Made by a program: the position numbers and the translations under genes. From a virus (taxonomy: Duplodnaviria > Heunggongvirae > Uroviricota > Caudoviricetes): a DNA stretch of 16,989 nucleotides. A model generated the notes under the pieces. That model was not told the DNA's origin, did not search any database, and saw nothing but the letters and a program-made list of their open reading frames with translations. Numbering within the stretch: the stretch's first letter is position 1; every line of letters starts with the position of its first letter. This document shows, piece by piece, positions 1 through 15,621 of the stretch. The stretch is taken from IMG/VR virus record IMGVR_UViG_2778261502_000004, positions 1-16,989 of that record, one strand, 5' to 3'.

Positions 1-489
1 TCAAATCAAGCATCGCACTCTGAAGCAAGTAGCCATCTGCCTGCTTCCTTTGATCTGCGAGAAGTTTGTGGCAGTGATCACCAATCCCCCCTGTGCGCGA
101 GCAGCTTTCAGTCCAGCTTTTGTTCGTTCAACAATCAGTTCACGCTCCATTTCAGCCAGGGCACCCATCACATGAAAGAAAAAGCGTCCCATTGAGGTAC
201 TGGTATCAATTGAATCCGTCAGACTACGAAAGTTGATGCCTCGTTCGCGCAACTCCTCCACCAGCACGACAAGATGCCGCATACTGCGCCCCAGCCGATC
301 CAGCTTCCAGACAACCAGAGTGTCACCTTCCGATAATGTCCTGAGCAGTTTTTTCAATCCCGGCCTTTCGGACTTTATACCGCTTATCTTGTCTTCAAAA
401 ATCAGCTCGCATCCTGCACAGTTCAGCGCATTACGTTGTAGATCTGTGTTCTGGTCATTTGTTGACACACGTACATAGCCAATAAGCAT
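1..489 (-). CDS. pin: Serine recombinase / DNA invertase (Pin-Gin-Cin-Hin family); catalytic domain intact, C-terminal tail does not look like the usual HTH DNA-binding domain (possible frameshifted pseudogene)
   Basis: ORF 1..525(-); real start likely ATG at 489 (MLIGYVRVSTNDQNTDLQ, catalytic Ser in VRVSTNDQ) with GGGAG 7 nt upstream; last ~28 residues (GLVITATNFSQIKGSRQMATCFRVRCLI) differ from the conserved GRIGGRRPKL...STLYK tail; stop at 1..3. Confidence 0.8.
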   Translation of the reverse strand: MLIGYVRVSTNDQNTDLQRNALNCAGCELIFEDKISGIKSERPGLKKLLRTLSEGDTLVVWKLDRLGRSMRHLVVLVEELRERGINFRSLTDSIDTSTSMGRFFFHVMGALAEMERELIVERTKAGLKAARAQGGLVITATNFSQIKGSRQMATCFRVRCLI

Positions 490-543
490 GGTAGATCTCC
501 CTGACAAAAGCAGGGATGATGCCATTTGCTCGTTATTTCTACA

Positions 544-569
544 TTTTCATAAACGTTGGTTTGGGAGAA
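544..569. repeat. Candidate invertase crossover site (pix/gix/cix-like), left boundary of invertible segment
   Basis: TTTTCATAAACGTTGGTTTGGGAGAA with core AAACG-TT-GGTTT; inverted copy of the site at 2114..2139; the central dinucleotide is complementary between the two sites as inversion requires. Confidence 0.6.
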
Positions 570-914
570 GCGGCGAAAAGGGATGTGGGCACAGGAGATA
601 ATCAGATACCGGATATGGGAGCATTCGCTTCTGGTTCGGGATGGTTCAGGCTACCAGGTGGATATATTGTTCAGTTTGGCACTTTTTCAGGAAACACGAC
701 CCGCTTTATCAGTGGACACTTCCCTATACCATTCCCTAATCAGCCGATGGTTTCAGTCAGTGTTATGTCTGATGCCGTTCAGTCAGACCCGTCGAATCCT
801 GCCCCGCAGGTTTTGTCTGTAAATTTTGAACATATCAGTAATTCAGCGTGGCGTGTGGCAACCAGTGATATCTCACAGCAATACAGATTCAGTTATATTT
901 CGATAGGATGGTAG
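570..914 (+). other. Start-less alternative tail-fibre C-terminal cassette (Sv'), expressed only after inversion
   Basis: ORF 516..914(+) opens with [24 protein letters not shown], the same junction peptide found inside the tail-fibre gene ([24 protein letters not shown]), then an unrelated C-terminus; no credible own start or RBS. Confidence 0.65.
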
Positions 915-916
915 AA

Positions 917-1357
917 ATGCAGAAATATATTTTCAGTGCCGATAAAAATGCGTTTTTCCCTGTGGAGCTTAAAATCGCTTATCAGGAATCCGGCGAATGG
1001 CCCGATGATGGAATCGAAATTGACGACACTGTTGCCGCCGAATTTATGAAGGAAGCACCAGAAGGAAAATACAGAGGCGTCATCGACGGAATGCCTGCAT
1101 GGATTGATATTCCACCGCCAACTCACGAGGAACAAATTGCCGCAGCCGAACTGGAAAAGCAGCAATTGATTGATCAGGTCAACGAATACATAAACAGTAA
1201 GCAATGGCCTGGTAAAGCGGCGATTGGTCGCCTGAAAGGTGAGGAACTGGCGCAATATAATTTGTGGCTGGATTATCTGGATGCACTGGAATTGGTAGAT
1301 ACTTCCAGTGCTCCAGATATTGAATGGCCTATACCTCCGGGGGGACAGGCCAGTTAA
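917..1357 (+). CDS. Tail fibre assembly protein (Tfa/U-like), partner of the alternative fibre cassette
   Basis: MQKYIFSADKNAFFP...GMPAWIDIPPPT...WPIPPGG, typical Tfa family features; AGGA 8 nt upstream of ATG 917; converges on the second tfa. Confidence 0.8.
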   Translation: MQKYIFSADKNAFFPVELKIAYQESGEWPDDGIEIDDTVAAEFMKEAPEGKYRGVIDGMPAWIDIPPPTHEEQIAAAELEKQQLIDQVNEYINSKQWPGKAAIGRLKGEELAQYNLWLDYLDALELVDTSSAPDIEWPIPPGGQAS

Positions 1358-1754
1358 TATTCTCTGGGTCGGTTGTCACATCAGTCGCCTTAATATCATT
1401 CTTATACGTCAGCCACGCCGACAGTTTTGCTCTGTTGGCGTCGCTAATTTCTCCCAGCATCAACTCTGTACGCCAGTCGAGCATCACATCATCAGCATGA
1501 GACAGTAGTTGCTGGCGTTTATTTTCTGCGACCTGAACTAACTCTTCTTTTGTTGGAGGGGGAATATCAGCCCAGGCTGGCATTCCATTCACGCTGGAGA
1601 GAATTTTCCCCTGCGGCCATACACCACCGTATTCCGCTCTTACGGTATCGCTGATTGCAACGGCATCTGATAAATCCCAGCCAGCATCGATATATTCCTG
1701 CATTAGGGACTCGGGAAAAAATGACAGGTTTGCGGGAGACCATAAAAATTCCAT
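1329..1754 (-). CDS. Tail fibre assembly protein (Tfa/U-like), partner of the currently expressed fibre
   Basis: MEFLWSPANLSFFPE...GMPAWADIPPPTKEE...NWPVPPEV; lies immediately downstream of the fibre gene on the same strand. Confidence 0.85.
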   Translation of the reverse strand: MEFLWSPANLSFFPESLMQEYIDAGWDLSDAVAISDTVRAEYGGVWPQGKILSSVNGMPAWADIPPPTKEELVQVAENKRQQLLSHADDVMLDWRTELMLGEISDANRAKLSAWLTYKNDIKATDVTTDPENINWPVPPEV

Positions 1755-1756
1755 AA

Positions 1757-2416
1757 TTAACGCCCTATTGAATACACCATTACATCCAGTGAGCTGGATG
1801 TATATGTACTGGTTGCAAGAAATGAAGAAAGATTGTTATTGGATGCACTGACAAATGGACTCGCCGCCACGTTAATGGTGCGGCTTTCAGTGTTGGCCCA
1901 TGAGCCAATAACCGTTGATGTGAACGGGATTAAATAGTTTGCTGATACTGTAGCCCCTGTAGTACCAGATGCTGCAGGAATACTTACTCTTTTCCACTGC
2001 AACATCCAGTTCTGAGGAAACCGTACATATCCTCCATTCAGTTCATTCCTGAATTCAAAACTACCCATATCCGGGATCTGATTTCCCCCTGTGCCCACAT
2101 CCCGTTTTGCCGCCTCTCCCAAACCAAGGTTTTCGAGAGCCGTTTTCACCGTGCCATCCGCTTTGATATCGCCAAACGGATTTTTGCGGCTTAACAGCAG
2201 CGCACGAAGCGCGGTAAGCAGCTGGTCGTGCCGCGCCTTCTCGAGACTGGCACCGGATGCCTCCACAACGCTGCAAAGCTCCTCCTGCAACATGTCAAAG
2301 TAGTCATCATCCAGATCGGTGGCAGGCGTGCCAGTCTGGGGGTTACCACGGGTAAAACCGTTTTTACCCGCGCCGAACTTATCCTTCTGCGCGGTTTTCG
2401 TGTCTATACGATGCAT
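1757..2416 (-). CDS. Side tail fibre protein (Mu S / e14 Stf-like): conserved N-terminal part joined to a variable C-terminal receptor-binding part
   Basis: 219 aa; N-terminus [47 protein letters not shown] is the conserved tail-fibre N-terminus as I recall it; the crossover site lies inside the gene at the [12 protein letters not shown] codons. Confidence 0.85.
2114..2139. repeat. Candidate invertase crossover site (pix/gix/cix-like) inside the tail-fibre gene, right boundary of invertible segment
   Basis: CTCTCCCAAACCAAGGTTTTCGAGAG with palindromic core AAACC-AA-GGTTT; ~60 bp of inverted homology with 556..616 follows on the inside of the segment. Confidence 0.65.
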
Positions 2417-2419
2417 GGA

Positions 2420-3004
2420 TTACTCCGGATATTTAAAAATTACGTAGGTATGCGACGGGCAGAGTTTGTTAAGCACGCACTCGACAACGGTGTCCCCCCA
2501 GATACGCAGTGCGGAATCACAGGGATCGCCACATGTCATCCAGGTGGTGTTGGTGGCGGCTGGCATGTTGATCTGCCAGTAATACCGCCATTCAGGCGCG
2601 TTCACAGCGTCAGTACAGGCCGATGAGCAGGTGAACGTGCTTTTGTCGTATCGCGTGATGGTGGCATCTGGTCTGCCCAGGGCAGCAAGCTGTGCAAGAT
2701 AAAAATCCTCGTTGATGCCGCCCGCCAGGTTAACCTTCGCATCCAGCCGTTGCTGACGCTGGCGAAGGGTCTGTGTCCCTGCGGGAATACATTCATCCGG
2801 CAGACCGCACAGACGCTCCCAGCGGTTTATCAGTTCAGTGGTGGTGCGCGGATCCAGCTCCCGCATCAGGGCATCCGCACGCTGATGAACGCGGGTTAAT
2901 GACGGTGCCGCACCGGCAATCGCCGGATCGCTGGCTGACCACGCCGGACCGGGGGGCAACAGTGCCGACAACAGACGGATGTAATCATCGTTTGTCACGT
3001 CCAT
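2420..3004 (-). CDS. Tail/baseplate protein of the YmfQ / Mu gp48 type (DUF2313-like)
   Basis: 194 aa [24 protein letters not shown]...[13 protein letters not shown]; sits directly upstream of the tail-fibre gene as ymfQ does in e14; recognised from memory, not aligned. Confidence 0.75.
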
Positions 3005-3140
3005 GAAATCGTCCCCAGTACCGCCAGTTCATTTTTTGCAATGGAGATATTGTCTGCCGGTGCAAGCAACTGATGGCTGTATTCCCCGTTCGCACCGGAA
3101 ATCGCCTCACTGATACGCGATACCTTCAGTTCTCCCTGCG
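2995..3140 (-). pseudogene. C-terminal remnant of the gene that normally precedes ymfQ (baseplate J-like by synteny)
   Basis: Open frame ...[46 protein letters not shown], stop overlapping the ymfQ-like start (ATGGACGTGA); no start codon; about 48 codons only. Confidence 0.3.
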
Positions 3141-3269
3141 GATATAGGGTTTGTCGCGGTTCGGGTATTCATGTGTTTCCACACGGCGACCGGTTCCCGC
3201 ACTTTCTTCTTCAACCTTAAACGGCACGCCGCGAAATGACGCGTCCTGAAGCCTGTCTTTCCACGTCAT
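3126..3269 (-). pseudogene. N-terminal remnant of a Mu N-like DNA-circularisation / tail protein, cut off after 47 codons
   Basis: MTWKDRLQDASFRGVPFKVEEESAGTGRRVETHEYPNRDKPYIRREN* with GGAG RBS; the SFRGVPF...GRR..HEYP.RD.PY motif matches the N-terminus of this family as I recall it; expected position after the tape measure in Mu-like order. Confidence 0.5.
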
Positions 3270-3285
3270 ATATACTCCGAAAATT

Positions 3286-3310
3286 AAAAAGCCACCTATT
3301 AGAAGGTGGC
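3286..3310 (-). terminator. Rho-independent terminator downstream of the 176-aa gene
   Basis: GCCACCT-TATTAGA-AGGTGGC hairpin; on the minus strand it is followed by TTTTT. Confidence 0.7.
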
Positions 3311-3330
3311 CTTGTAATGAATTTTATTAA

Positions 3331-3861
3331 TTAGCGAGTCAGAAACAACGAATCTTTATACTTTTGCTGTTGTTCATTTAAATACTTAGCTGTTTCATCG
3401 CTGGCAAATGGAAATATTACCGTATTTTTAGGCATGGTAATTTCTTTTTTGTCCAGCGTCAGAGTAAACATAGGAACATACTGAGCAGAGTAACGCACCG
3501 CAGAAACGAGCTCTAGTTTAGACTCTTCAATAACACTTAAATTATCCAGGCTAACTTTCTCTTCATCTTTTTTCTTTGACGCATTTAAAGTTTTTATTAC
3601 TTTATTTAATTTCTCCTGAAAATCCTCCTTAAAGTTTTCAGGATTGCCGTCGACAACAAGAATCTGTTCACCCTGATTATCTGGAAAAATAATCTTTGCA
3701 CTTATCAATTTATTTTCTTTATAAACATCACCAAGTTTTATGGCTCCTCCAGATAACTGAATAATATGTTCATCTTTAAAGGAGATGTTGCCAGAGATTA
3801 TGAGAGATGAAAAAATAGCCGCTGCTCCAAGAATTACACTTGCTGTGATATAGCCTTTCAT
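3331..3861 (-). CDS. Hypothetical membrane-anchored or secreted protein encoded by an AT-rich insertion
   Basis: 176 aa; hydrophobic N-terminus MKGYITASVILGAAAIFSSLIISG then a Lys/Glu/Asp-rich domain; visibly AT-rich between GC-rich tail genes; own terminator. Confidence 0.6.
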   Translation of the reverse strand: MKGYITASVILGAAAIFSSLIISGNISFKDEHIIQLSGGAIKLGDVYKENKLISAKIIFPDNQGEQILVVDGNPENFKEDFQEKLNKVIKTLNASKKKDEEKVSLDNLSVIEESKLELVSAVRYSAQYVPMFTLTLDKKEITMPKNTVIFPFASDETAKYLNEQQQKYKDSLFLTR

Positions 3862-3952
3862 TTTTCGCCTATTAACATTTTTCTAAATGTGCATTAATTC
3901 TATCACTCTATTTATGACTTACAACCAGCAATACATGTGAGGGGAATCCTGG

Positions 3953-5785
3953 CTACCAAAATCGGGTATAGCCAACATCGTGATTTATATCAATGCCACT
4001 GGAGCGTGTTTCCGTAACCCGCATACCTGGTGGCATATTTATAAATGATACCTTGATCTCACCATCAACTTTTGGCGCGGTAGCTTTATTAATCATGAAG
4101 GGATTCGAGCCTGTGGCATCGGAGGCGTTGTTTGCCTGAGCCGGATCCACCGCCGGATAAGGAGTGTATCCCCGTGCCGGTATTCCCGTCCCATAAGCAT
4201 CATAAGCACCCGCGCCCCACTGCGCCGAGTTAATGGTATCGACCGTGTCACCGGAACTGCCGGTAAACCATTCAATAATCGGCTTCAGCTTATCCCACAT
4301 ATCCTGAAACCACTTAACAACCGGTCCCCAGTTATTGATCACCATCCCCAGCGGCGACCAGGCAAAAACCTTCTTCAGAAGTTCCCGGCCAGCCTCAAAA
4401 TAAGGACCAATGGTTTCCCAGAGCTTCTTGAAATAAGGTCCGACAACATCCCAGTTAGTGATAATTAATCCCGCAGCCAGAGCAATCGCCGTCGCAATCA
4501 TGCCAATCGGCGTCATCGACATGATCCTGCTGACAATACTGATGGCACTGCCCACGCCCATCAATCCCAGTTTCAGAATCGCAAGACCGGCAGCAAGCCC
4601 GACGACGCCGCGAATAACCCGGGGATTTTCATCCGCAAACTTCGTGAATTTTTCCCCCAACTCCCCCAGCCATTGCGTGATATTTTTAGCGTCACCAGAA
4701 AATGCGCCGCCAATAGCTGCAAGACCGTTAGTTGCGGTCCCCGTCATTGCCTCCCACAGGTTGGACAGCGTACCAAGCTGTGCCTGAACACGTTTATTCA
4801 GGCTGGCCTGTTTATTCATCTTCTGCTGGATCTGATCGTAACCATCCTTTCCTTTATCGATCAGAGCATTGACCACCTGAAGGGTTTCGGCATCATCACC
4901 AAATATTGCCTTAAGTACACCTGTTCGCTTAACGTCGGTCAGTTTTCGCAGCTTTGCCAGTTGCTTAAACATGTTATCAAGACCGCCAAAACTCCCTTTG
5001 CCGTCAGTAAAATCGAGCTGCACTCCGAGTTTCTGGCGGGCCATGACTTTATTGACGTCCCTGATTTTCTTAACGCTTAATCCGGACTGGATAACTTTTC
5101 GCAGGGCATTACCTGCCGACTCCCCGTTCATCCCCATCTGATCCATCATGACGCTGATAGGGGCAAGGCTCTGTGCAGCCTGAAGTCCGTCCTTATTCAC
5201 CATCTTCAGAACAGAACTGGTTTTAGTGAAGAAGGACAACATGTTGGTATCGTCAACGCCCAGATAAAACGCCTTCTGGATAGTGTCGAACAGTCCCATC
5301 ATGTCTTCTGACGCAGTTCCGGTAGCATCCTGCATCTTTGCAGCAAACTCAGCAGCCGCTTCCGGTGTTTTTTTCAGTTGTACCGCAAGATAAGCTGTCG
5401 CTTTACCCACACCACCAAGAATGTTTTCTGCCGGGATCCCCTGACGCACCAGCATCTGCATCATGTTCTGGAAATCAGCCGTTGTACCGGGTAGCTGGTT
5501 ACCCAGGCCAATAGCCAGTTTATTGATGTCCTGAAAGCTCTTTCCAACCTCGCCGTTCGCATCCATCATGGCGACTTTCAGCCCGGTGGCGGCGTTTTCC
5601 TGATCGGCATAAGATTTCAGGGAAAGCGTCAGACCCGCTGCCAGTCCGCCACCAAGCGCCAGCCCACCCTGTGACGCTTCTTCCGCCTGGCGTTTAAATC
5701 CCCGGATTTTCTTTTGCATTTTCGACAGCGCGGGAGAAAGCCTGTCGACACCGGTGATCAACGCCTTAAGCTCAAATTCAGCCAT
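3953..5785 (-). CDS. Phage tail tape measure protein
   Basis: 610 aa, Ala/Gly/Leu-rich with internal hydrophobic stretches; follows the frameshifted chaperone pair, the conserved tail-gene position. Confidence 0.85.
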   Translation of the reverse strand: MAEFELKALITGVDRLSPALSKMQKKIRGFKRQAEEASQGGLALGGGLAAGLTLSLKSYADQENAATGLKVAMMDANGEVGKSFQDINKLAIGLGNQLPGTTADFQNMMQMLVRQGIPAENILGGVGKATAYLAVQLKKTPEAAAEFAAKMQDATGTASEDMMGLFDTIQKAFYLGVDDTNMLSFFTKTSSVLKMVNKDGLQAAQSLAPISVMMDQMGMNGESAGNALRKVIQSGLSVKKIRDVNKVMARQKLGVQLDFTDGKGSFGGLDNMFKQLAKLRKLTDVKRTGVLKAIFGDDAETLQVVNALIDKGKDGYDQIQQKMNKQASLNKRVQAQLGTLSNLWEAMTGTATNGLAAIGGAFSGDAKNITQWLGELGEKFTKFADENPRVIRGVVGLAAGLAILKLGLMGVGSAISIVSRIMSMTPIGMIATAIALAAGLIITNWDVVGPYFKKLWETIGPYFEAGRELLKKVFAWSPLGMVINNWGPVVKWFQDMWDKLKPIIEWFTGSSGDTVDTINSAQWGAGAYDAYGTGIPARGYTPYPAVDPAQANNASDATGSNPFMINKATAPKVDGEIKVSFINMPPGMRVTETRSSGIDINHDVGYTRFW

Positions 5786-5960
5786 GTGTGCGTTTCTCCT
5801 GCTCTATCCTGTTTGCCTGACTGACCAGTAAGGGAATTTCACTGATCGGCATATTCAGCAATTCGAAAGGATTAATGCGCCAGTAGCTGGCGCAGTCAAA
5901 GAAGCGATCAGTGAGGTATTCAGCCGTCAGGCCTGGAGGAAAAAACCAGCCACAAGCCAC
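5778..5960 (-). CDS. -1 frameshift extension of the tail assembly chaperone (G/GT-type fusion product)
   Basis: ORF in the -1 frame overlapping the chaperone 3' end and the tape-measure start; entered through the slippery heptamer at 5939..5945. Confidence 0.6.
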   Translation of the reverse strand: MACGWFFPPGLTAEYLTDRFFDCASYWRINPFELLNMPISEIPLLVSQANRIEQEKRTHG

Positions 5961-6196
5961 GCCGCTGCATTCAGGTCTGCCGGAGACATCTGGTCGACAG
6001 AGTTTTGCGGCACTTTCGCCAGCCGCACAATGTATTTCGACACCACATGCGCCAGAAGTCTGACGGACTCATCCTGATTCATCTGGTAGGGATACCCCAG
6101 CTCGCGGACATCTTTCCCGGTGGGCTCATCAAACTCCAGTACGGAGAGTGTCTCGCCATGAGCGGTAATCGGTTTCTTTAACTCAAGCTCTTTCAT
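5927..6196 (-). CDS. Tail assembly chaperone (Mu gp41 / lambda G-like)
   Basis: 89 aa between tube and tape measure; ends in the slippery site. Confidence 0.65.
   Translation of the reverse strand: MKELELKKPITAHGETLSVLEFDEPTGKDVRELGYPYQMNQDESVRLLAHVVSKYIVRLAKVPQNSVDQMSPADLNAAAWLVAGFFLQA
5939..5945 (-). other. Programmed -1 ribosomal frameshift slippery heptamer T_TTT_TTC
   Basis: Minus-strand GCT GGT TTT TTC CTC sits 4 codons before the chaperone stop; the -1 frame continues FFPPGLTAEYL... to 5778. Confidence 0.6.
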
Positions 6197-6552
6197 TACT
6201 GGTAATCCCCTTCTTCACCGTGGAACTCAAGATCGACCGTGCCTTCTTCGGCATTATGGTTCGCTTCGCCGTGCAGCCAGGCAGACGACAGTACATAGAC
6301 CTGACCGTTCGCCAGCTCGGCAGTGATGGTCATCTCATCAGACGAGGTGATTTTGCTCACCGGAAAATTCTTCGGCACCTTGAAGGTCCCTTTGACATAG
6401 GGCGCACGGTGAGTTTCCTTGCGGTCCACTGAACCGTCCAGGCCGATGATGTCATCATTGACCGTCCTGTTCATGGGCACCTCAATGCCGCCGGTCAGCG
6501 ATAGCTGCTGACCGTCAATTTTGAAATAACAGGTTCCCCCGATACGGGCCAT
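6196..6552 (-). CDS. Phage tail tube protein (Mu M-like)
   Basis: 118 aa MARIGGTCYFKIDGQQLSLTGG...; TAATG overlap with the sheath stop; sheath-tube-chaperone-tape measure order. Confidence 0.7.
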   Translation of the reverse strand: MARIGGTCYFKIDGQQLSLTGGIEVPMNRTVNDDIIGLDGSVDRKETHRAPYVKGTFKVPKNFPVSKITSSDEMTITAELANGQVYVLSSAWLHGEANHNAEEGTVDLEFHGEEGDYQ

Positions 6553-7457
6553 TATGCAGACTCCTCTGAATACTGAAGACGGAACTGGTTAACCAAGGCA
6601 AAGACACGCAACTGGTTAACATAGTCAGGCGGGAACAGCGTGTTCAGGCGGTTCGGATCGCTGGCATCACGCTCCACAACCAGGTACTGCTTAAACAGTT
6701 CGTAGTTTTCCACGATCCCCGCACGCTCAAGCTGACGGTAGGTTGCCAGCAGTTCCCCTTTGATTACCGCCGGGGTGACAATCGCCTGACCGGGACCAAA
6801 GCGGGTACCGTCGCTGGCAAGCTTGTGACGCCCGTACTTACTGGTAATGACGGATTTCAGTTTGCGCAGTACATACGCACTGGTATGCAGCGTCTCGCTG
6901 TCGAGGTAGCTGTTATCCGCAACCCCGTAAGCATTTTTCCTGTACGTGGTGACATCACGCTGAATGCGCAGCCCCCCGCTTTCGACATACGCCGTTGCCA
7001 CGCCATGAGACAGCAGGGTCTGCTGCTCGGTCATCGTGAACCGTTTCCCCTTCGGCGCAGGCAGCATACCCACCAGCTCACCGGTCTGCGTGGGACGTGC
7101 CGGATCGTTGCGGATAAACACCGCTGCGCGGGCGGTACGGCTTGCCGCCAGCTCGTCGGCAGGCGTCTGGGTCTCTTTTTCGTACCCCGCCAGGGTGATG
7201 TGCTGCTGGTTAAACTGGTCACCTGCGTTCACCAGTTCTGACAGTGTGCCGGTCTTTGCCGTATACACATGACCATACAGCTGACGCGCATAGCTCCAGC
7301 GACCGCTGGTATCGTTCATCTCGGTCACTGTCCCACTTCGAACCGTAGCCGCGCTGATGACGGGATTGTCCTGGTTTGTATTGCTTCCAGCCTTCGCTTT
7401 TGTGGCTTTCGCAGTAGCCTGACGGGTCTGTGGTTGTAGAGCGGCAGCCGCGAACAC
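6552..7457 (-). CDS. Contractile tail sheath protein, 5'-truncated; the upstream part of this ORF is probably out-of-frame read-through from an HNH gene remnant
   Basis: 301-aa ORF with GTG start and no RBS; C-terminal two-thirds sheath-like by synteny and by motifs I recall (RKNAYGVADNSYLD, GQAIVTP, VERDASDPNRLNTLFPPDYVNQ); first ~40 residues are low-complexity Ala/Thr/Lys; sheaths are normally over 370 aa. Confidence 0.6.
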   Translation of the reverse strand: MFAAAALQPQTRQATAKATKAKAGSNTNQDNPVISAATVRSGTVTEMNDTSGRWSYARQLYGHVYTAKTGTLSELVNAGDQFNQQHITLAGYEKETQTPADELAASRTARAAVFIRNDPARPTQTGELVGMLPAPKGKRFTMTEQQTLLSHGVATAYVESGGLRIQRDVTTYRKNAYGVADNSYLDSETLHTSAYVLRKLKSVITSKYGRHKLASDGTRFGPGQAIVTPAVIKGELLATYRQLERAGIVENYELFKQYLVVERDASDPNRLNTLFPPDYVNQLRVFALVNQFRLQYSEESA

Positions 7458-7485
7458 GGCAGGCTTTTGGGGTTCGAGGGGGCAT
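7219..7485 (-). pseudogene. N-terminal fragment of a phage HNH endonuclease fused out of frame to the sheath gene
   Basis: MPPRTPKACRVRGCRSTTTDPSGYCESHKSEGWKQ...RGYGSKWD shows the C-x3-GC...YC-x2-H...RGY..W pattern of the HNH N-terminus; AGGA 8 nt upstream of ATG 7485; similarity is lost after about residue 52. Confidence 0.4.
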
Positions 7486-7543
7486 TATTAATGTCCTAAA
7501 TAGTTTCCTCTCTAAAAACTAATTTGTGTTAGGGAAATCATTA

Positions 7544-7587
7544 AATGAAGTGAACCTTTTAGTACCCACTGTAAAATTCACTTCATT
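7544..7587 (-). terminator. Long inverted repeat just downstream of the 169-aa gene (possible terminator or protein-binding site)
   Basis: AATGAAGTGAA ... TTCACTTCATT, 11-bp perfect arms with a 22-nt loop; no clean U-tract. Confidence 0.35.
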
Positions 7588-7592
7588 AATAT

Positions 7593-8102
7593 TTAACCAA
7601 ATACAATGAATGTTCCAAAAGATGCTAATGATATATTTATCAGAGAATCCATACGAGCCTTAATTTCTGGCGTATCCTCGACCTCAGTACGCCATTGATT
7701 GACTGCCTCAATCATATCTCGACAAAACACATCTATTTGCAACTGAAGTTTGCCATTTAAGTGATTTAAATGCACTTGGCAATTTGGCCTAGGTGGTGGT
7801 GTAAAATTAAACTGCATCATTCTTTTCCTGTTCTCTGGATCCTGTCCAGCATGTAAACAAGAACAACGATACAGCCAAAAATCATCCGCATAAAATCGAC
7901 ACTGTTCATGTGTACCGGATGTATATTTATTTTCAAGATAACGAGAAACCCAATCTTTATACCATTTCCCTGTTTCACCCTTACCTATTTTGGGACGTTC
8001 AACGCTCCTGCAAATATCAGGCATAGCAAGAGCCATAAACAATGCCGCTAACCAATTCTCACTTTCAATTGAAGATTCAATTGATTTTATAAACCTTTCC
8101 AT
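7593..8102 (-). CDS. Hypothetical Cys/His-rich protein encoded by an AT-rich insertion between the lysis cassette and the HNH remnant
   Basis: 169 aa MERFIKSIESSIESENWLAALFMALAMPDICRS...YRCSCLHAG...; visibly AT-rich; no family recognised. Confidence 0.6.
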   Translation of the reverse strand: MERFIKSIESSIESENWLAALFMALAMPDICRSVERPKIGKGETGKWYKDWVSRYLENKYTSGTHEQCRFYADDFWLYRCSCLHAGQDPENRKRMMQFNFTPPPRPNCQVHLNHLNGKLQLQIDVFCRDMIEAVNQWRTEVEDTPEIKARMDSLINISLASFGTFIVFG

Positions 8103-8168
8103 AACTCACCTTTATATTATTTGATGATTATATTTATAGCACAGTTACAATCATTTTCCGGAAAATAT

Positions 8169-8420
8169 TTATTCATTTTGATATCCTATTTTTAGAATAT
8201 CCTTTTTATCTCTATTGCATTGCGCTAATGCAGATAACAAACTCGCATTCAGTTCCAGGCTAGCACCATATGTCAGTGGACTAGGTACAACTGGAATCGG
8301 TGTTTCAGAAGTCAGGCTGGCTGGCAGTGGTACCGCCGGAGTGTTCACGTAAACTGTCCGCGTACTTCCGCAACCGGTCAGCAGCGGCAGCAGGCACAGG
8401 ACGTGAAGCACAATCATCAT
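8169..8420 (-). CDS. Outer-membrane spanin lipoprotein (Rz1-like), overlapping the 3' part of Rz in another frame
   Basis: MMIVLHVLCLLPLLTGCGSTR... with lipobox LLTGC followed by a Pro-rich region; start inside Rz. Confidence 0.65.
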   Translation of the reverse strand: MMIVLHVLCLLPLLTGCGSTRTVYVNTPAVPLPASLTSETPIPVVPSPLTYGASLELNASLLSALAQCNRDKKDILKIGYQNE

Positions 8421-8697
8421 CCGCAACAGCCACTTTGATATCTTCCTGGGTTCTCTGTGACTCCAGTGCAATCTGCTGTTTTGCATGCTGGTTAGCCTCT
8501 ATAACTGTATTGATGATTTGCAGTGATTGCAGAACGTTACGGGTAATGGCAGTTGCTGATTCAGCATTTCGTATAGCCTCATCAACACGCTCCTTTTCGT
8601 GCAGATATTTGCTGTAGTAATGCCCGGCAGACCAGATGAAGGAACCAATGACGGTAACAAAGAAGGCAACAATAACCAGCTTATATCTCAGCTTCAT
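8305..8697 (-). CDS. Inner-membrane spanin (Rz-like)
   Basis: 130 aa with N-terminal transmembrane segment (LVIVAFFVTVIGSFIW) and a coiled-coil-like remainder; start overlaps the endolysin stop. Confidence 0.75.
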   Translation of the reverse strand: MKLRYKLVIVAFFVTVIGSFIWSAGHYYSKYLHEKERVDEAIRNAESATAITRNVLQSLQIINTVIEANQHAKQQIALESQRTQEDIKVAVADDDCASRPVPAAAADRLRKYADSLREHSGGTTASQPDF

Positions 8698-9157
8698 TTA
8701 CTACCCCACCAGCCTCTTTAAACCGGGAAATCAGGTCGCCAATTTTATGTTCATACTGACCGTAACCTGCACCAGGTAACGACGCCCAGATATTGCTGCA
8801 ACGATCGATAGCCTGACGGATATCACCGCGATCAATCATCGGTAAAGCGCCACGCTCTTTAATCTGCTGCAATGCCACAGCGTCCTGGCTTTTCGGAGAG
8901 AAGTCTTTCAGGCCAAGCTGCTTACGATAGGAATCCCACCAACGGGAAAGAAGCTGGTAGCGCCCGGCTGCTGTTGATTTGAGTTTTGGGTTTAGCGTGA
9001 CAAGTTTGCGAGGGTGATCGGAGTAATCAGTAAATAGCTCTCCGCCTACAATGACGTCATAACCATGATTTCTGGTTTTCTGCCGTCCGTTATCCGTTCC
9101 TTCTGACCATGCCACCATATCGAGGAAAGCTTTACGCTGAGGATTAAGATTTTGCAT
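8681..9157 (-). CDS. R: Endolysin, lambda R-type lytic transglycosylase
   Basis: 158 aa MQNLNPQRKAFLDMVAWSEGTDNGRQKTRNHGYDVIVGGELFTDYSDHPRKL..., near-identical to lambda R as I recall it; AGGGGTGA RBS. Confidence 0.93.
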   Translation of the reverse strand: MQNLNPQRKAFLDMVAWSEGTDNGRQKTRNHGYDVIVGGELFTDYSDHPRKLVTLNPKLKSTAAGRYQLLSRWWDSYRKQLGLKDFSPKSQDAVALQQIKERGALPMIDRGDIRQAIDRCSNIWASLPGAGYGQYEHKIGDLISRFKEAGGVVNEAEI

Positions 9158-9311
9158 TTTTCACCCCTGTCAGTCGTTCCCAGAAGTACGTCAGTGCAAC
9201 CGAACCCATTGCACCACTAATCCCCGCTGTCGCGAGAATCATGTAAATACTGAATCCACTTTCGATGCTGATCAGGCCACCAATAACACCGGTGAATCCT
9301 GATATCCGGTC
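9147..9311 (-). pseudogene. Start-less hydrophobic C-terminal remnant, probably of the holin gene
   Basis: Open frame ...SGFTGVIGGLISIESGFSIYMILATAGISGAMGSVALTYFWERLTGVKNAKS* ending in the ATG of R, the position of a holin 3' end; bounded upstream by an in-frame stop, no N-terminal part. Confidence 0.45.
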
Positions 9312-9486
9312 TTAAGTCAGATTTCGTAATTGCACCTGACGTGCATTGCTCAAGTTTTTTAGCCAGCACAAAACTGGCTTTTTTATAGCCATTGAAAACC
9401 AGCCGTAAGTAGCCAGGTGTTGAGCCAACTTTTCCGGCCAACTCGCCCTGCTGTTCTTTGGTTAAAGAGTCCCAATACGCTTTCAT
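9217..9486 (-). CDS. Cro-like HTH regulator (YdaS/Cro family) whose 3' end reads out of frame through the holin remnant
   Basis: Start ATG 9486 with GGAGGT RBS (MKAYWDSLTKEQQGELAGKVGSTPGYLRLVFNGYKKASFVLAKKLEQCTSGAITKSDLRPDI); the last 27 residues (RIHRCYWWPDQHRKW...) are Trp/Arg/His-rich, as expected for the wrong frame of a hydrophobic gene; divergent from cI. Confidence 0.6.
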   Translation of the reverse strand: MKAYWDSLTKEQQGELAGKVGSTPGYLRLVFNGYKKASFVLAKKLEQCTSGAITKSDLRPDIRIHRCYWWPDQHRKWIQYLHDSRDSGD

Positions 9487-9576
9487 ACAATATGTACCTC
9501 CGGTGTACATATTACATGATTAAAATGAACCTTCAAGATACTTGTACCTTAACGGTACAAGGGTTTTAATTTCGTT
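9487..9576. promoter_or_regulatory. Divergent immunity control region with two 19-bp palindromic operators and candidate pR and pRM promoters
   Basis: Operators ATGTACC-N5-TGTACAT (9492..9510) and TTGTACC-N5-GGTACAA (9542..9560); minus-strand promoter TTGAAG (9531..9536) / 16 bp / TAATAT (9509..9514); plus-strand TTTAAT at 9565..9570 lies just before the cI ATG, suggesting a leaderless cI message. Confidence 0.55.
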
Positions 9577-10251
9577 ATGAAAACAATCCATGACATCCGG
9601 CGGTCTAACGCCAGAAAACTGAGAGATGGTGTTGGCGGGAATTCTTCCTTTGCCACTATGATTGATCGCGAGCCAACCCAGACCAGCAGGTTTATGGGAG
9701 ATGGTGCTACTAAAAATATCGGTGACAGCATGGCACGACACATCGAAAAATGTTTCGACCTACCTGTCGGATGGCTCGATCAAGAACACCAGACAACGAA
9801 CATCACAAAAAAACCTGATGTTTCAATCACTAATAAACAAATCACATTAGTCCCTGTCATATCATGGGTACAGGCCGGAGCATGGAAAGAAGTTGGATAT
9901 TCTGAGGTTGATTTGAGCACAGCAGAAACGTATCCCTGCCCTGTACCCTGTGGGGAAATGACTTATATCTTGCGGGTGATAGGTGATTCAATGATTGATG
10001 AGTACCGCCCGGGAGACATGATTTTTGTCGATCCTGAAGTACCTGCCTGCCACGGTGACGACGTTATTGCATTGATGCACGATACAGGTGAAACCACCTT
10101 CAAAAGGTTAATAGAAGATGGGACACAGCGTTATCTCAAAGCGTTAAACCCAAACTGGCCTGAGCCTTACATTAAGATCAACGGTAATTGCTCTATAATT
10201 GGTACAGTGATTTTCTCAGGAAAACCAAGAAGATACAAAATCAAAGCCTAA
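9577..10251 (+). CDS. CI-type prophage repressor: phage-CI HTH N-domain plus LexA/S24-type autocleaving C-domain
   Basis: 224 aa; N-terminal ...GDSMARHIEKCFDLPVGWLDQ; C-terminal domain with Ser in VIGDSM and Lys in TFKRL, the S24 catalytic dyad context. Confidence 0.9.
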   Translation: MKTIHDIRRSNARKLRDGVGGNSSFATMIDREPTQTSRFMGDGATKNIGDSMARHIEKCFDLPVGWLDQEHQTTNITKKPDVSITNKQITLVPVISWVQAGAWKEVGYSEVDLSTAETYPCPVPCGEMTYILRVIGDSMIDEYRPGDMIFVDPEVPACHGDDVIALMHDTGETTFKRLIEDGTQRYLKALNPNWPEPYIKINGNCSIIGTVIFSGKPRRYKIKA

Positions 10252-10263
10252 TCAATGTTTATG

Positions 10264-10288
10264 AACCTGCTTCGGCAGGTTTTTTTAT
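10264..10288 (+). terminator. Rho-independent terminator after cI
   Basis: AACCTGC-TTCG-GCAGGTT stem-loop followed by TTTTTT. Confidence 0.8.
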
Positions 10289-10290
10289 AC

Positions 10291-10323
10291 TTGACAATGT
10301 ACCTTTGAGATACATAATGTACC
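10291..10323 (+). promoter_or_regulatory. pL-like early-left promoter with overlapping operator
   Basis: TTGACA (10291..10296) / 16 bp / CATAAT (10313..10318); operator ATGTACC-N5-GATACAT at 10297..10315 with the same 7-5-7 layout as the cro–cI operators; extra half-site ATGTACC at 10317..10323. Confidence 0.65.
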
Positions 10324-10409
10324 CAAGAGAAACAACGAACAGGCAGGACGCCCACGAAGTAGCCGCCTGGGGCATATGAAGTCCAGGATGATTCGTTAGC
10401 AACAAAAAA

Positions 10410-11994: not shown

Positions 11995-12819
11995 ATGTCT
12001 CAGAACTTAGACGCAACCGCAATTAATCAAATCCATGCCCTTATTTCTGCTCAGGGTGTTAATGAAATTATCAGTAAGATTGGTGCCGATGCTGTGGCAT
12101 TGCCTGAGAATTTCCGCATTCATGATCTGGAAAAATTTAATTTAAATCGCTTCCGTTTCCGTGGTGCGCTTTCCACTGCCAGCATCGATGACTTTACCCG
12201 TTATTCTAAAGATCTTGCAGATGAAGGCACCCGCTGCTTTATCGATGCTGATAATATGCGTGCCGTCAGTGTGCTTAACCTGGGTACTATTGATGAACCA
12301 GGTCACGCAGATAACACCGCCACACTCAAACTGAAAAAGACAGCACCGTTCTCTGCTCTGTTGTCTGTTAACGGCGAGCGTAACTCCCAGAAGTCACTGG
12401 CAGAATGGATTGAAGACTGGGCCGACTATCTTGTGGGCTTTGATGCTAATGGTGACGCTATTCAGGCAACAAAAGCGGCTGCGGCTGTCCGTAAAATCAC
12501 GATTGAAGCAAACCAGACCGCTGATTTTGAAGATAATGACTTCAGCGGCAAACGCTCCCTGATGGAGTCTGTCGAAGCGAAGACCAAAGACATTATGCCA
12601 GTGGCATTTGAATTTAAATGCGTTCCGTTTGAAGGTCTGAAAGAACGTCCGTTTAAATTACGCCTCAGTATTATCACTGGCGATCGTCCTGTACTGGTTC
12701 TGCGCATTATTCAGCTGGAGGCGGTGCAGGAAGAAATGGCTAACGAATTTCGTGATCTGCTTGTTGAGAAATTCAAGGACAGCAAAGTAGAAACCTTTAT
12801 TGGTACTTTCACCGCCTGA
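11995..12819 (+). CDS. yfdQ: YfdQ-like protein (DUF2303 family)
   Basis: 274 aa; GAGGA RBS; size and order as in CPS-53; not aligned. Confidence 0.65.
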
Positions 12820-12831
12820 TTTCATTACTGC

Positions 12832-12853
12832 AAATGCCCCTGCGGGGGCATTT
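12832..12853 (+). terminator. Perfect hairpin between the yfdQ-like and yfdR-like genes (weak terminator or attenuator)
   Basis: AATGCCCC-TGCG-GGGGCATT followed by T-ATGG; short U-tract. Confidence 0.35.
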
Positions 12854-12946
12854 ATGGAAACGTAATTTACTCAATAATCGCCGGATGGTGAGGGATTCTT
12901 TTTACCAGAATTCAGCGCGGTGCAGCGCATATACGTGGAGAACAAA

Positions 12947-13483
12947 ATGTCATTTATTAAAACTTTTTCCGGGAAGCATTTTTATTATGACAGGATAAAT
13001 AAAGACGACATCGATATTAACGATATCGCGGTTTCCCTTTCAAATATCTGTCGCTTTGCCGGTCATCTTTCGCACTTCTACAGCGTCGCCCAACATGCGG
13101 TTCTTTGCAGCCAGCTGGTGCCGCAGGAATTTGCTTTTGAAGCGTTAATGCATGATGCAACAGAAGCGTATTGCCAGGACATTCCCGCACCACTGAAACG
13201 CCTTCTTCCTGACTATAAACAAATGGAAGAAAAAATAGACGCCGTAATCCGTGAGAAATACGGGTTACCTCCAGTTATGAGTACGCCCGTGAAATATGCC
13301 GATCTCATCATGCTGGCAACCGAACGCCGCGATCTCGGGCTTGATGATGGCTCTTTCTGGCCTGTACTGGAAGGTATCCCGGCAACAGAGATGTTCAACG
13401 TGATTCCACTGGCACCGGGCCATGCCTACGGGATGTTTATGGAACGCTTTAACGAGTTATCGGAGTTACGCAAATGCGCATGA
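12947..13483 (+). CDS. yfdR: HD-domain phosphohydrolase, YfdR/YfbR-type 5'-deoxynucleotidase
   Basis: 178 aa from ATG 12947 (GGAG RBS; the track's GTG at 12920 is less likely); H..H in SVAQHAVLC and HD in LMHDATEAY. Confidence 0.8.
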   Translation: MSFIKTFSGKHFYYDRINKDDIDINDIAVSLSNICRFAGHLSHFYSVAQHAVLCSQLVPQEFAFEALMHDATEAYCQDIPAPLKRLLPDYKQMEEKIDAVIREKYGLPPVMSTPVKYADLIMLATERRDLGLDDGSFWPVLEGIPATEMFNVIPLAPGHAYGMFMERFNELSELRKCA

Positions 13484-13836
13484 ATGTTTTCGAAATGGAA
13501 GGGTTTCTTCGTGGGAGATGTGTACCGCGAGATCTGAAAGTAAATGAAACAGATGCTGAATACCTGGTGCGTAAATTCGATGCGCTTGAAGCTAAATATG
13601 CAGCACAGGAAAACAAAGTAATACCAGTGTCAACTGAACTGCCACCAGCAAATGAAAGTGTTTTGTTATTCGATGCTAACGGAGAAGGCTGGCTAATTGG
13701 CTGGCGTTCTCTCTGGTACACCTGGGGACAAAAAGAAACCGGAGAATGGCAGTGGACATTTCAGGTCGGGGACCTTGAAAACGTCAATATCACTCACTGG
13801 GCAGTAATGCCAAAAGCACCGGAGGCTGGAGCATAA
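13474..13836 (+). CDS. yfdS: DUF551-type prophage protein (YfdS-like)
   Basis: 120 aa; C-terminal ...LLFDANGEGWLIGW...ITHWAVMPKAPE pattern typical of DUF551; start overlaps the yfdR-like stop. Confidence 0.7.
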   Translation: MRMNVFEMEGFLRGRCVPRDLKVNETDAEYLVRKFDALEAKYAAQENKVIPVSTELPPANESVLLFDANGEGWLIGWRSLWYTWGQKETGEWQWTFQVGDLENVNITHWAVMPKAPEAGA

Positions 13837-14141
13837 TGACCACTTTTACCGACAAAGAACTGATTAAAGAAATTAAAGAGCGTATCAGCAGCCTTGACGT
13901 GCGAGACGATATTGAGCGCCGTGCTTATGAAATCGCACTCCTATCTCTGGAAGTAGAACCAGATGAACGCGAAGCTTATGAATTATTCATGGAAAAGCGT
14001 TTCGGTGACTTAGTAGATCGTCGGAGAGCAAAAAACGGCGATAACGAATACATGGCATGGGATATGACTCTCGGTTGGATCGTCTGGCAGCAACGAGCTG
14101 GTATCCATTTTTCAACAATGTCACAGCAAGAGGTGAAATAA
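13836..14141 (+). CDS. yfdT: YfdT-like early-left prophage protein
   Basis: 101 aa; TAATG overlap with the preceding gene; size and position match yfdT as I recall it. Confidence 0.55.
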   Translation: MTTFTDKELIKEIKERISSLDVRDDIERRAYEIALLSLEVEPDEREAYELFMEKRFGDLVDRRRAKNGDNEYMAWDMTLGWIVWQQRAGIHFSTMSQQEVK

Positions 14142-14491
14142 TGGAGCCATACAGCCTCACACTCGATGAGGCCTGTCATTTTCTCAAGATATCCAGACCG
14201 ACTGCCATTAACTGGATACGCACAGGGCGTCTTCAGGCAACACGCAAAGATCCCACTAAGAATAAATCTCCTTACCTCACAACACGACAAGCCTGCATTG
14301 CGGCTCTTCAGTCTCCGCTGCATACTGTCCAGGTGAGCGCGGGTGATGGCATAACAGAGGAAAGAAAATGTCACTCTTCCGCAGAGGTGAAATATGGTAC
14401 GCCAGTTTCACATTGCCGAACGGTAAAAGATTTAAACAGTCTCTTGGAACAAAGGACAAAAGGCAGGCGACAGAACTCCATGACAAGCTAA
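14141..14491 (+). CDS. xis: Excisionase (P22 Xis-like)
   Basis: Start ATG 14141 (AGGTGA RBS; TAATG overlap with the previous gene), 116 aa [33 protein letters not shown]...; 3' end overlaps the integrase start by ~124 bp. Confidence 0.8.
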
Positions 14492-15531
14492 AGGCTGAAG
14501 CATGGCGGGTCAGCAAACTTGGTGAAATACCTGATATAACGTTCGAGGAAGCGTGTGTCAGGTGGCTTGAAGAGAAAGCACATAAAAAATCACTGGACGA
14601 TGACAAAAGCCGGATCGGATTCTGGCTTCAACATTTCGCAGGAATGCAACTAAGAGACATTACTGAATCAAAAATTTATTCAGCAATGCAGAAAATGACG
14701 AACCGGCGTCATGAGGAAAACTGGAAACTCAGGGCAGAAGCATGCAGAAAAAAAGGGAAACCTGTTCCAGAATACACGCCAAAACCAGCGTCCGTTGCAA
14801 CGAAGGCTACGCATCTTTCATTTATAAAGGCCCTACTAAGAGCCGCAGAGCGTGAATGGAAAATGCTGGATAAGGCACCAATTATTAAAGTGCCCCAACC
14901 AAAGAATAAACGGATCCGCTGGCTGGAGCCCCATGAAGCACAAAGGCTGATTGATGAATGTCCGGAGCCATTAAAGTCTGTTGTTGAATTTGCACTGGCA
15001 ACAGGCCTAAGACGCTCGAACATCATCAACCTTGAATGGCAACAAATAGATATGCAGCGCCGGGTGGCATGGATAAACCCGGAAGAGAGTAAATCAAACC
15101 GCGCAATTGGCGTTGCGCTGAATGATACTGCATGTCGCGTATTGAAAAAACAAATCGGGAATCATCACCGTTGGGTATTTGTGTACAAGGAAAGCTGTAC
15201 CAAACCAGACGGAACGAAAGCGCCAACAGTCAGGAAGATGCGGTATGACGCAAACACAGCCTGGAAAGCGGCGCTGAGACGGGCTGGTATTGATGATTTC
15301 AGATTTCACGACTTGAGACACACCTGGGCAAGTTGGCTGGTTCAAGCCGGAGTCCCGTTGTCAGTGTTACAGGAAATGGGAGGCTGGGAGTCTATCGAAA
15401 TGGTTCGTCGATATGCTCACCTTGCACCTAATCACCTTACCGAACACGCACGGCAAATAGACTCGATCCTAAACCCATCGGTCCCAAATTTGTCCCAGTC
15501 AAAAAATAAGGAAGGTACTAATGATGTGTAA
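14368..15531 (+). CDS. int: Tyrosine-recombinase integrase of the P22 / SfV family
   Basis: 387 aa [24 protein letters not shown]...; C-terminal [10 protein letters not shown]...VRRYAHL carries the catalytic His/Arg/Tyr context; ends 15 bp from the tRNA 3' end. Confidence 0.93.
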
Positions 15532-15545
15532 CTTATTGATTTAAA

Positions 15546-15621
15546 TGGTGCCGATAATAGGAGTCGAACCTACGACCTTCGCATTACGAATGCGCTGCTC
15601 TACCAACTGAGCTATATCGGC
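15546..15621 (-). tRNA. thrW: tRNA-Thr (anticodon CGU), the attachment tRNA
   Basis: Reverse complement reads GCCGATATAGCTCAGTTGGTAGAGCAGCGCATTCGTAATGCGAAGGTCGTAGGTTCGACTCCTATTATCGGCACCA, 76 nt with CCA end and anticodon loop CATTCGTAATG. Confidence 0.97.

Follow-up and report, generated by a model that had tools for sequence, protein, structure and literature searches.

The zinc-ribbon motif of HNH endonucleases has been defined together with the "group 1" enzymes, which are encoded beside cos and terminase genes (Xu and Gupta 2013, PMC3592412). HK97 gp74, the prototype of the cos-associated HNH proteins, is described in PMC9410871, which cites Kala et al. 2014, as stimulating the cleavage of cos by terminase. 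Enzymes of the gp74 type (group 1) combine an N-terminal CxxxxC/CxxH zinc ribbon with a C-terminal HNH domain that carries two CxxC motifs, and their gene lies directly 5' of cos and terS; the intact relatives of the locus described here share both this domain order and this position. A second point of reference is SfV (NC_003444), a complete 37-kb phage in which orf53 encodes an HNH endonuclease and is the last gene before cos, and orf11 encodes a tail sheath similar to Mu gpL. In SfV these genes are separated by 8.5 kb that include cos, whereas their counterparts abut in the window analysed here (the whole stretch of 16,989 nucleotides).

Mapping on SfV and on intact relatives resolved the whole window into five collinear blocks and three scars, referred to below as J1, J2 and J3. 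The element is best read as an SfV-like prophage that is integrated at thrW beside proA in E. coli and has become defective; phages of this kind pair head and packaging genes of HK97 type with a contractile tail of Mu type. An SfV-type integrase next to tRNA-Thr(CGU) and proA, together with the collinear gene order, places it among the SfV-like thrW prophages, and it shares 98-99% identity in the cI/cro, early-left and int regions with SfV, which uses the same thrW integration site. Because the segment from int through thrW to proA is 100% identical to ST361-type strains, the host is E. coli. The features outside the immediate surroundings of J1 are as follows.

About 3143..3144, no strand: deletion junction J2, with a 'TA' microhomology, from comparison with intact relatives.
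7593..8102, minus strand: accessory ("moron") gene of 169 aa (phrog_18591) in a variable slot between the spanin and HNH genes.
8169..9157, minus strand: intact lysis genes 5' of the HNH remnant, within a 1,978-bp block that is 100% identical to strain 22AR0750 (L006).
8169-8486, minus strand: Rz1-like o-spanin.
8305-8697, minus strand: Rz-like i-spanin.
8681-9157, minus strand: endolysin.
9301..9304, no strand: deletion junction J3, with a 'GATA' microhomology, at which cro (up to codon 61) continues out of frame into the holin gene (from codon 49).
9577..10251, plus strand: intact cI-type LexA/S24 repressor, 98% identical to the SfV cI region.
14368-15531, plus strand: intact SfV-type integrase at the attachment end of the prophage, its region 98.9% identical to SfV.
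15546-15621, minus strand: tRNA-Thr(CGU) thrW, abutting the integrase (joint feature 14368..15621) and followed by proA.

Also intact are early-left genes resembling yfdP-T, the tube, tail assembly chaperone, tape measure and ymfQ/gp48 genes, an invertible tail-fibre segment with its Pin-type invertase, and two accessory genes. The slot between spanin and HNH genes is occupied in L009 by a 168-aa gene unrelated to the 169-aa gene of the window, and searches of the flanking accessory genes with Pfam, PADLOC and NCBIfam returned no match for defence or any other function. A stable hairpin (about 7530-7590, z = -3.2) lies 3' of the 169-aa gene and precedes the HNH remnant.

At J1 itself, the remnants of two genes and two open reading frames overlap.

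7327..7485, minus strand: HNH remnant (HNH'), codons 1-53 of a 116-aa cos-associated zinc-ribbon HNH endonuclease, from DNA and protein identity and phrog_144.
7219..7485, minus strand: chimeric ORF of 88 aa, composed of the 53 HNH codons, then 35 out-of-frame codons of the sheath gene and a stop, from translation and frame arithmetic.
6552..7328, minus strand: sheath remnant, codons 241-498 and the stop of a 498-aa contractile tail sheath of the SfV/Mu gpL type, from DNA and protein identity and Pfam.
6552..7457, minus strand: ORF of 301 aa with a GTG start at 7457, in which 43 HNH codons read in an alternative frame are joined, by chance in frame, to the 3' part of the sheath gene.
7327..7328, no strand: deletion junction J1, from three-way alignments with HNH and sheath genes and from BLAST endpoints.

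The 88-aa ORF runs on the minus strand from the ATG at 7485 to the stop at 7219 and starts MPPRTPKACRVRGCRSTTTDPSGYCESHKSEGWKQYKPGQSRHQRGYGSKWDS. Its residues 1-53 are identical in protein alignment to the 116-aa HNH protein of 22AR0750 and diverge thereafter; at the DNA level, 7485-7327 is 100% identical to the HNH genes of L006 and L002 and 93% identical to the 5' end of SfV orf53. The match to 22AR0750 continues without a mismatch over 1,978 bp (7327-9304), from which we conclude that the resemblance is one of homology and not chance. When 7300-8200 was queried alone, 19 E. coli prophages matched over the full length up to 7327, several of them at 100%, and the annotated order in these prophages is spanin, hypothetical protein, HNH endonuclease. 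PHROGs recognises HNH' as HNH endonuclease phrog_144 (E=8e-16). The Pfam HNH profile found no match on the 88-aa ORF, because the catalytic domain, which occupies residues 66-112 of the intact homologue (CQLC...DH...N...CWPCH), lies beyond the breakpoint at codon 53 and has been deleted. The His-Asn-His, beta-beta-alpha-metal arrangement with two CxxC motifs that marks a catalytic HNH domain (PF01844) is accordingly missing from the 88-aa ORF; the N-terminal zinc ribbon of the group 1 enzymes is complete, with CRVRGC at residues 9-14 (CxxxxC) and CESH at residues 25-28 (CxxH). The surroundings have changed as well: intact relatives have terS some 125 bp 3' of the HNH gene, and an enzyme of this group is expected directly 5' of cos and terS, whereas HNH' abuts the 3' part of the sheath gene.

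The sheath remnant is 99.5% identical in DNA to SfV 8231-9158 and 100% identical to E. coli PF9285, and BLAST matches from 7328 downward, covering the sheath 3' part and the tube gene, extend to SfV, SfII, SfI and SfIV at 98-99.6%. In the 301-aa ORF, residues 44-301 correspond to residues 241-498 of the SfV orf11 sheath (255/258 identical, 99% protein identity), so that the C-terminal 52% of the natural sheath is kept. The remnant retains Phage_sheath_1C (PF17482) complete and the subtilisin-like Phage_sheath_1 (PF04984) over profile positions 22-168 only; Pfam and alignment agree that the beta-sandwich domain II (PF17481) and the N-terminal 240 residues are absent. All three Pfam domains are present in the intact 498-aa homologue, and the full set that makes up a contractile tail sheath is therefore not found here. 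A sheath gene should also have its own start and ribosome-binding site after the DUF2635 gene; the native start has been deleted, and GTG 7457 lies inside the HNH gene with no purine-rich Shine-Dalgarno sequence upstream of it. Residues 1-43 encoded by the 301-aa ORF stem from the HNH 5' region, translated in another frame. Intact HNH genes show the same open frame, 49 codons long, and it has been annotated as a gene by mistake so often that its peptide makes up a spurious PHROG family (phrog_32515). With the alignment starting at residue 241 of 498 and the preceding 43 residues derived from the HNH alternative frame, a full-length or a naturally short sheath is ruled out.

These comparisons bear on a preliminary description of the locus, which had read the frame from ATG 7485 as the N-terminus of an HNH endonuclease and the overlapping 301-aa ORF as a 5'-truncated sheath gene. 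Comparison of the first 52 residues as protein did reveal HNH similarity (to phrog_144), and the sheath frame gave no full-length alignment to a natural sheath, as that description had anticipated; its observation that the 301-aa ORF begins with a GTG and no ribosome-binding site is likewise borne out. That description can be refined. The stretch of about 40 low-complexity residues at the start of that ORF is indeed foreign to the sheath (43 residues) and can now be named as the HNH gene in an alternative frame, and the HNH piece, correctly recognised as an N-terminus, holds a zinc ribbon only and no nuclease, at a scar that is one of three in the prophage.

The junction can be placed to the nucleotide. 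When 6400-8200 was compared by BLAST with phage genomes and with 5,426 complete E. coli genomes, the matches split sharply at 7328/7327, and no record in these collections spans both halves. Three-way alignments with the HNH and sheath genes of L002 and SfV show the HNH parent reading GGGACAGT up to the breakpoint and ATCCGCG after it, and the sheath parent reading CGCTGGT and then GACCGAG; the window reads GGGACAGTGACCGAG across J1, a clean switch from HNH to sheath. A 'GT' on the minus strand is common to both parental sequences and constitutes a 2-bp microhomology, just past which the parents show a weak, imperfect similarity (GT..CCG.G). Such a junction is the signature of illegitimate, microhomology-mediated joining and not of homologous or IS-mediated recombination. 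A deletion mediated by an insertion sequence or a repeat was considered separately and rejected, as IS elements are absent and repeats do not exceed 2-4 bp at any of the three junctions.

The reading frames at J1 determine what the join can encode. At position 7328 the HNH frame stands at the second base of codon 53 and the sheath frame at the first base of codon 241; the two genes are therefore joined out of frame, which rules out an in-frame HNH-sheath fusion protein. The 88-aa and 301-aa ORFs are by-products of the join, and both flanking genes have become pseudogenes through it. The preliminary description had spoken of an HNH N-terminus fused to a 5'-truncated sheath; this holds for the DNA, where the two sequences are joined, and fails for the protein, whose halves are out of frame.

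What was lost between the two endpoints can be read from intact prophages. In each of NT1F25, 23CRST027 and 22AR0750, which carry intact prophages at the thrW-proA site, the J1 endpoints lie 8,730 bp apart, and the window is collinear with all three in order and orientation at this same site; 19A14, with the same structural gene order at another integration site (ybhC), provides a further undeleted reference. In one RecA-independent, microhomology-mediated step, a deletion of 8,730 bp thus joined HNH codon 53 to tail sheath codon 241. It removed the 3' end of the HNH gene, cos, terS, terL, ymfR and the genes for portal, prohead protease and major capsid protein, and in addition those for the head-tail connector and closure proteins, the tail terminator, the DUF2635 gene and 240 sheath codons. 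Because the interval spans the HNH 3' end, cos and terminase through the head genes, the packaging site disappeared together with the whole packaging and head module. The alignments to SfV and the intact E. coli prophages agree with the single deletion proposed earlier, with a breakpoint predicted around 7320-7335 and now at 7328/7327, that took the HNH 3' end, terminase, portal and head genes and the sheath 5' end; the loss is larger than was listed, since cos and the head-tail connector, tail terminator and DUF2635 genes went too, 8,730 bp in total.

The other two scars are of the same kind. At J2, the first approximately 44 codons of the DNA-circularization gene (Mu N-like) are joined to the last approximately 50 codons of the gp47 baseplate gene. 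This cost the baseplate region about 4.1 kb: P, V and gp46 are gone entirely, N and gp47 for the most part. J3 marks the loss of everything between the 3' end of cro and codon 49 of the holin gene, with Q, the late promoter region and the replication genes among the missing parts. Each of J1, J2 and J3 has 2-4 bp of microhomology and has produced out-of-frame gene fragments, as is typical of a defective (cryptic) prophage; with three internal deletions, the packaging, head, tail, replication and late-regulation modules of a viable phage are not complete. Judging from gene content, an element with all three deletions should be unable to replicate, to package DNA, to build heads or tails, or to be packaged by a helper phage. 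It should not be classed as an inducible phage, tailocin or satellite, because cos and the terminase, head, baseplate, replication and late-control genes are missing; a functional tailocin or satellite in particular is ruled out by the truncated sheath, the deleted baseplate genes and the lost cos. The deletions are probably recent, given that the surviving genes are intact and that the 1,978 bp beside the scar (J3 to J1) are identical to live-looking prophages.

We consider it very probable that J1 arose by one intramolecular microhomology deletion in a resident prophage, one of three such events, and yielded two pseudogene fragments. A different history would have two phage genomes recombining illegitimately, for example a superinfecting SfV-like phage with the resident prophage, or a 1,978-bp lysis-HNH fragment inserted into an older deletion from cro to sheath. 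The unequal ancestry of the blocks speaks for it: the J3-J1 block (7327-9304) is 100% identical to 22AR0750, whereas identity to this strain drops to 97.2% and 98.7% in the flanking blocks, which have their best relatives elsewhere. Module mosaicism is, however, the rule in the SfV-like family, as illustrated by ST361, in which a lambda-like structural module stands behind an int region of 100% identity; all five blocks of the window are in the exact order and orientation of intact prophages at the same site, and two deletions require fewer events than a deletion followed by an oriented insertion. A two-parent or insertion origin is thus very unlikely, and the intramolecular deletion remains our preferred reading.

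A search among complete E. coli genomes for a single parent found no reference that matches all surviving blocks at about 100%. ST361 and its relatives were tried as a single intact parent and rejected, as they match int-thrW-proA at 100% and have a lambda-like structural module. The tail block is 97% identical to 22AR0750 and 100% identical to PF9285 over 929 bp, and the lysis-HNH block is 100% identical to 22AR0750; as different blocks have different closest strains, the parent must be a mosaic from outside the collection.

The exact junction is rare. None of the 5,426 complete E. coli genomes contains J1, J3 is likewise absent from complete genomes, and a 26-nt pattern across J1 was not found in GTDB representative genomes or in JGI metagenome contigs. 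This absence could be taken to mean that J1 is an assembly artefact, a chimeric contig of two distant parts of an intact prophage. Against this, only 2 bp are common to the two sides, with no repeat able to mislead an assembler; analogous scars are annotated in finished genomes; and a 9,935-bp Logan contig (run SRR3957146, reported for 2 samples) is 100% identical to 431-10365 of the window, with all three junctions included. We regard an artefact as very unlikely. Since J1 is reproduced in the Logan contig and absent from the complete and GTDB genomes and the JGI metagenomes, the scar is real but private to one lineage. The Logan assembly may stem from the same or a clonal isolate and in that case speaks for the assembly and not for an independent occurrence; a literature search found no mention of the run in papers. 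The 301-aa ORF was called as a gene in one Logan assembly, through which its product is present in a large protein collection; a 256-aa product is absent from the protein collection.

In principle the scar could be a functional new gene, encoding either a chimera of HNH zinc ribbon and sheath or a free zinc-ribbon peptide of 53 residues that would interfere with the packaging machinery of related incoming phages. In favour of this stand the unchanged native HNH start codon and upstream region and the complete CxxxxC and CxxH motifs. The chimera is ruled out because the halves are out of frame, and the free peptide is very unlikely: Q, the activator of the late genes, has been deleted together with the late promoter region, no promoter was found upstream (promoter-like sites are fewer than in shuffled sequence), a hairpin precedes the 88-aa ORF, and the exact product of this ORF does not occur in a collection of 15 billion proteins. 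Both ORFs are predicted not to be expressed. The J1 scar is ordinary prophage decay and not a new gene, a previously undescribed instance of a well-known kind. In an annotation both ORFs should be labelled as pseudogene fragments, the 88-aa one of an HNH gene without its C-terminus and the 301-aa one of a sheath gene without its N-terminus.

The scar alone matters little; its modest value is as a data point for prophage decay. A single element, its genes otherwise intact, here shows three clean microhomology deletions, with near-coincident breakpoints in independent strains. GPEC349-628 and GPEC1176 keep HNH' to about codon 68, joined to the last approximately 99 codons of the tape-measure gene, whereas the window breaks at codon 53; GPEC349-628 also joins N' to 'gp47, with endpoints 25 and 69 bp away from those of J2. 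DLI.5a has a cro'/'capsid junction within about 8 bp of J3, and NR3736 keeps only HNH codons 1-50, beside a different packaging module. All of these contain internal microhomology-type deletions with truncated pseudogenes, as the window does, and none has the 7327/7328 junction. The scars in the window, GPEC349-628, DLI.5a and NR3736 are independent, because each retains sequence that is missing from the others.

Three HNH 5'-half breakpoints thus fall within 45 nt (codon 53 in the window, about codon 68 in GPEC349-628, codon 50 in NR3736). It is conceivable, although we hold it to be doubtful, that deletion endpoints in the SfV-like prophage family may be non-random; the clustering comprises three or four cases that were partly ascertained by similarity searches and should be interpreted with caution. 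Two scenarios may apply: (i) erosion proceeds up to the edges of blocks that the host retains, or (ii) the endpoints mark a mechanistic hot spot, for instance breaks tied to cos/HNH activity in situ. Candidate retained blocks are cI-cro, the lysis genes with the variable accessory slot, a 176-aa accessory gene, and the ymfQ-fibre-invertase segment. If the clustering is true, under either scenario, the locus becomes a natural experiment that shows which of their prophage genes bacteria retain. Endpoint data of this kind could serve, in a systematic survey, to map the prophage genes retained by E. coli.

Set against its closest relatives, the window has the gene order of the intact SfV-like prophages in 22AR0750, NT1F25, 23CRST027 and 19A14, and its lysis-moron-HNH block is 100% identical to 22AR0750, 19A14, E371 and PEC414; in contrast to the window, the 8,730 bp from HNH codon 53 to sheath codon 241 are still present in the intact prophages, as are the baseplate genes and the replication/Q region. 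It differs from SfV also in its accessory content, with a Pin-type invertible tail-fibre segment instead of the gtr serotype-conversion genes. Unlike the gp74-type enzymes of group 1, HNH' has kept the zinc ribbon only; the deletion took the nuclease domain as well as cos and the partner terminase. To judge by shared gene names, two cryptic prophages of K-12, e14 (ymfQ, ymfR, stfP, pinE) and CPS-53 (yfdP-T), would belong to the same decayed family.

Beyond the junction between the 5' remnant of the HNH endonuclease gene (HNH') and the sheath gene, the prophage carries two further deletion scars, J2 and J3:

3139-3146: J2 deletion scar, with ORF 3126-3269 (minus strand)
9301-9304: J3 deletion scar, the third in the prophage, with ORF 9217-9510 (minus strand)

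At J2, the last ~50 codons of the baseplate gene gp47 are fused to the first ~44 codons of a Mu-N-like DNA-circularization gene, with the two gene fragments out of frame and a microhomology of 'TA'; in the ~4.1 kb that was lost, P, V and gp46 went entirely and N and gp47 for the most part. At J3, codon 49 of the holin gene is fused out of frame to codon 61 of cro at the microhomology 'GATA', and the deletion took the replication genes, the Q antiterminator and the late promoter. Following this loss, the PR promoter would read through directly into the endolysin, the spanins, HNH' and the tail remnants. The J3 junction was found in no complete E. coli genome.

Independently decayed relatives from the same prophage family have breakpoints that almost coincide with those of the window:

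GPEC349-628, 15160-15175 and 16221-16252: HNH' up to about codon 68 joined to the tape-measure 3' end, plus a junction of N' with 'gp47
DLI.5a, about 14038-14043: junction of cro' with 'capsid, within about 8 bp of window J3
NR3736, 7001-7150: HNH codons 1-50 adjoining a different packaging module

The endpoints of the N'-'gp47 junction in GPEC349-628 lie 25 and 69 bp from those of J2. Taken together, the near-coincident breakpoints of these relatives suggest that deletion endpoints in the SfV-like prophage family are non-random, reflecting either selection or erosion, or else a hot spot.

The HNH 5' region is also open in an alternative frame:

7329-7457 (minus strand): alternative frame of the HNH gene

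In intact phages, likewise, this +1 frame runs for ~49 codons without a stop; its peptide matches the PHROG family phrog_32515 ('unknown function') at E=1e-19, a family that evidently consists of spurious overlapping gene calls.

Two accessory genes are found amongst the remaining modules:

3331-3861 (minus strand): 176-aa gene, phrog_5485, between the tape-measure and DNA-circularization genes
7593-8102 (minus strand): 169-aa gene, phrog_18591, in a variable slot between Rz1 and HNH

The 176-aa gene has no known domain; it is absent from SfV but present in some relatives (DLI.5a, NT1F25, GPEC349-628), and was kept in both heavily deleted remnants. Searches of Pfam, PADLOC and NCBIfam gave no match for the 169-aa gene, which is followed by a stable hairpin (about 7530-7590, z = -3.2). 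The slot holds no gene in SfV; in GPEC349-628 it is occupied by an unrelated gene of 168 aa, and in 23CRST027 by one of 197 aa. It is likely a cargo or defence hot spot.

The early-left cluster is complete:

11995-14141 (plus strand): yfdP/Q/R/S/T-like genes, including DUF2303/YfdQ and the 5'-deoxynucleotidase YfdR

DnaA binding has been reported for YfdR of the K-12 prophage CPS-53 (PMC4776307), which may be relevant to retention of the early-left arm. The prophage of E. coli ST361 (NZ_CP103704.1) is 100% identical to the window at its int-thrW-proA end, whereas its head/tail module is lambda-like and completely different, illustrating module mosaicism at the thrW attachment site.

The opposite end holds an invertible tail-fibre segment:

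1-2416: invertible tail-fibre segment
1-525 (minus strand): Pin-like serine invertase
551-619 and 2064-2132: 69-bp inverted repeats, 88% complementary
516-914 (plus strand) and the distal part of 1757-2416 (minus strand): two alternative fibre C-termini
908-1357 (plus strand) and 1329-1754 (minus strand): two tail-fibre assembly genes

The inverted repeats flank both the C-termini and the assembly genes. In type, the segment corresponds to Mu G / e14 P.
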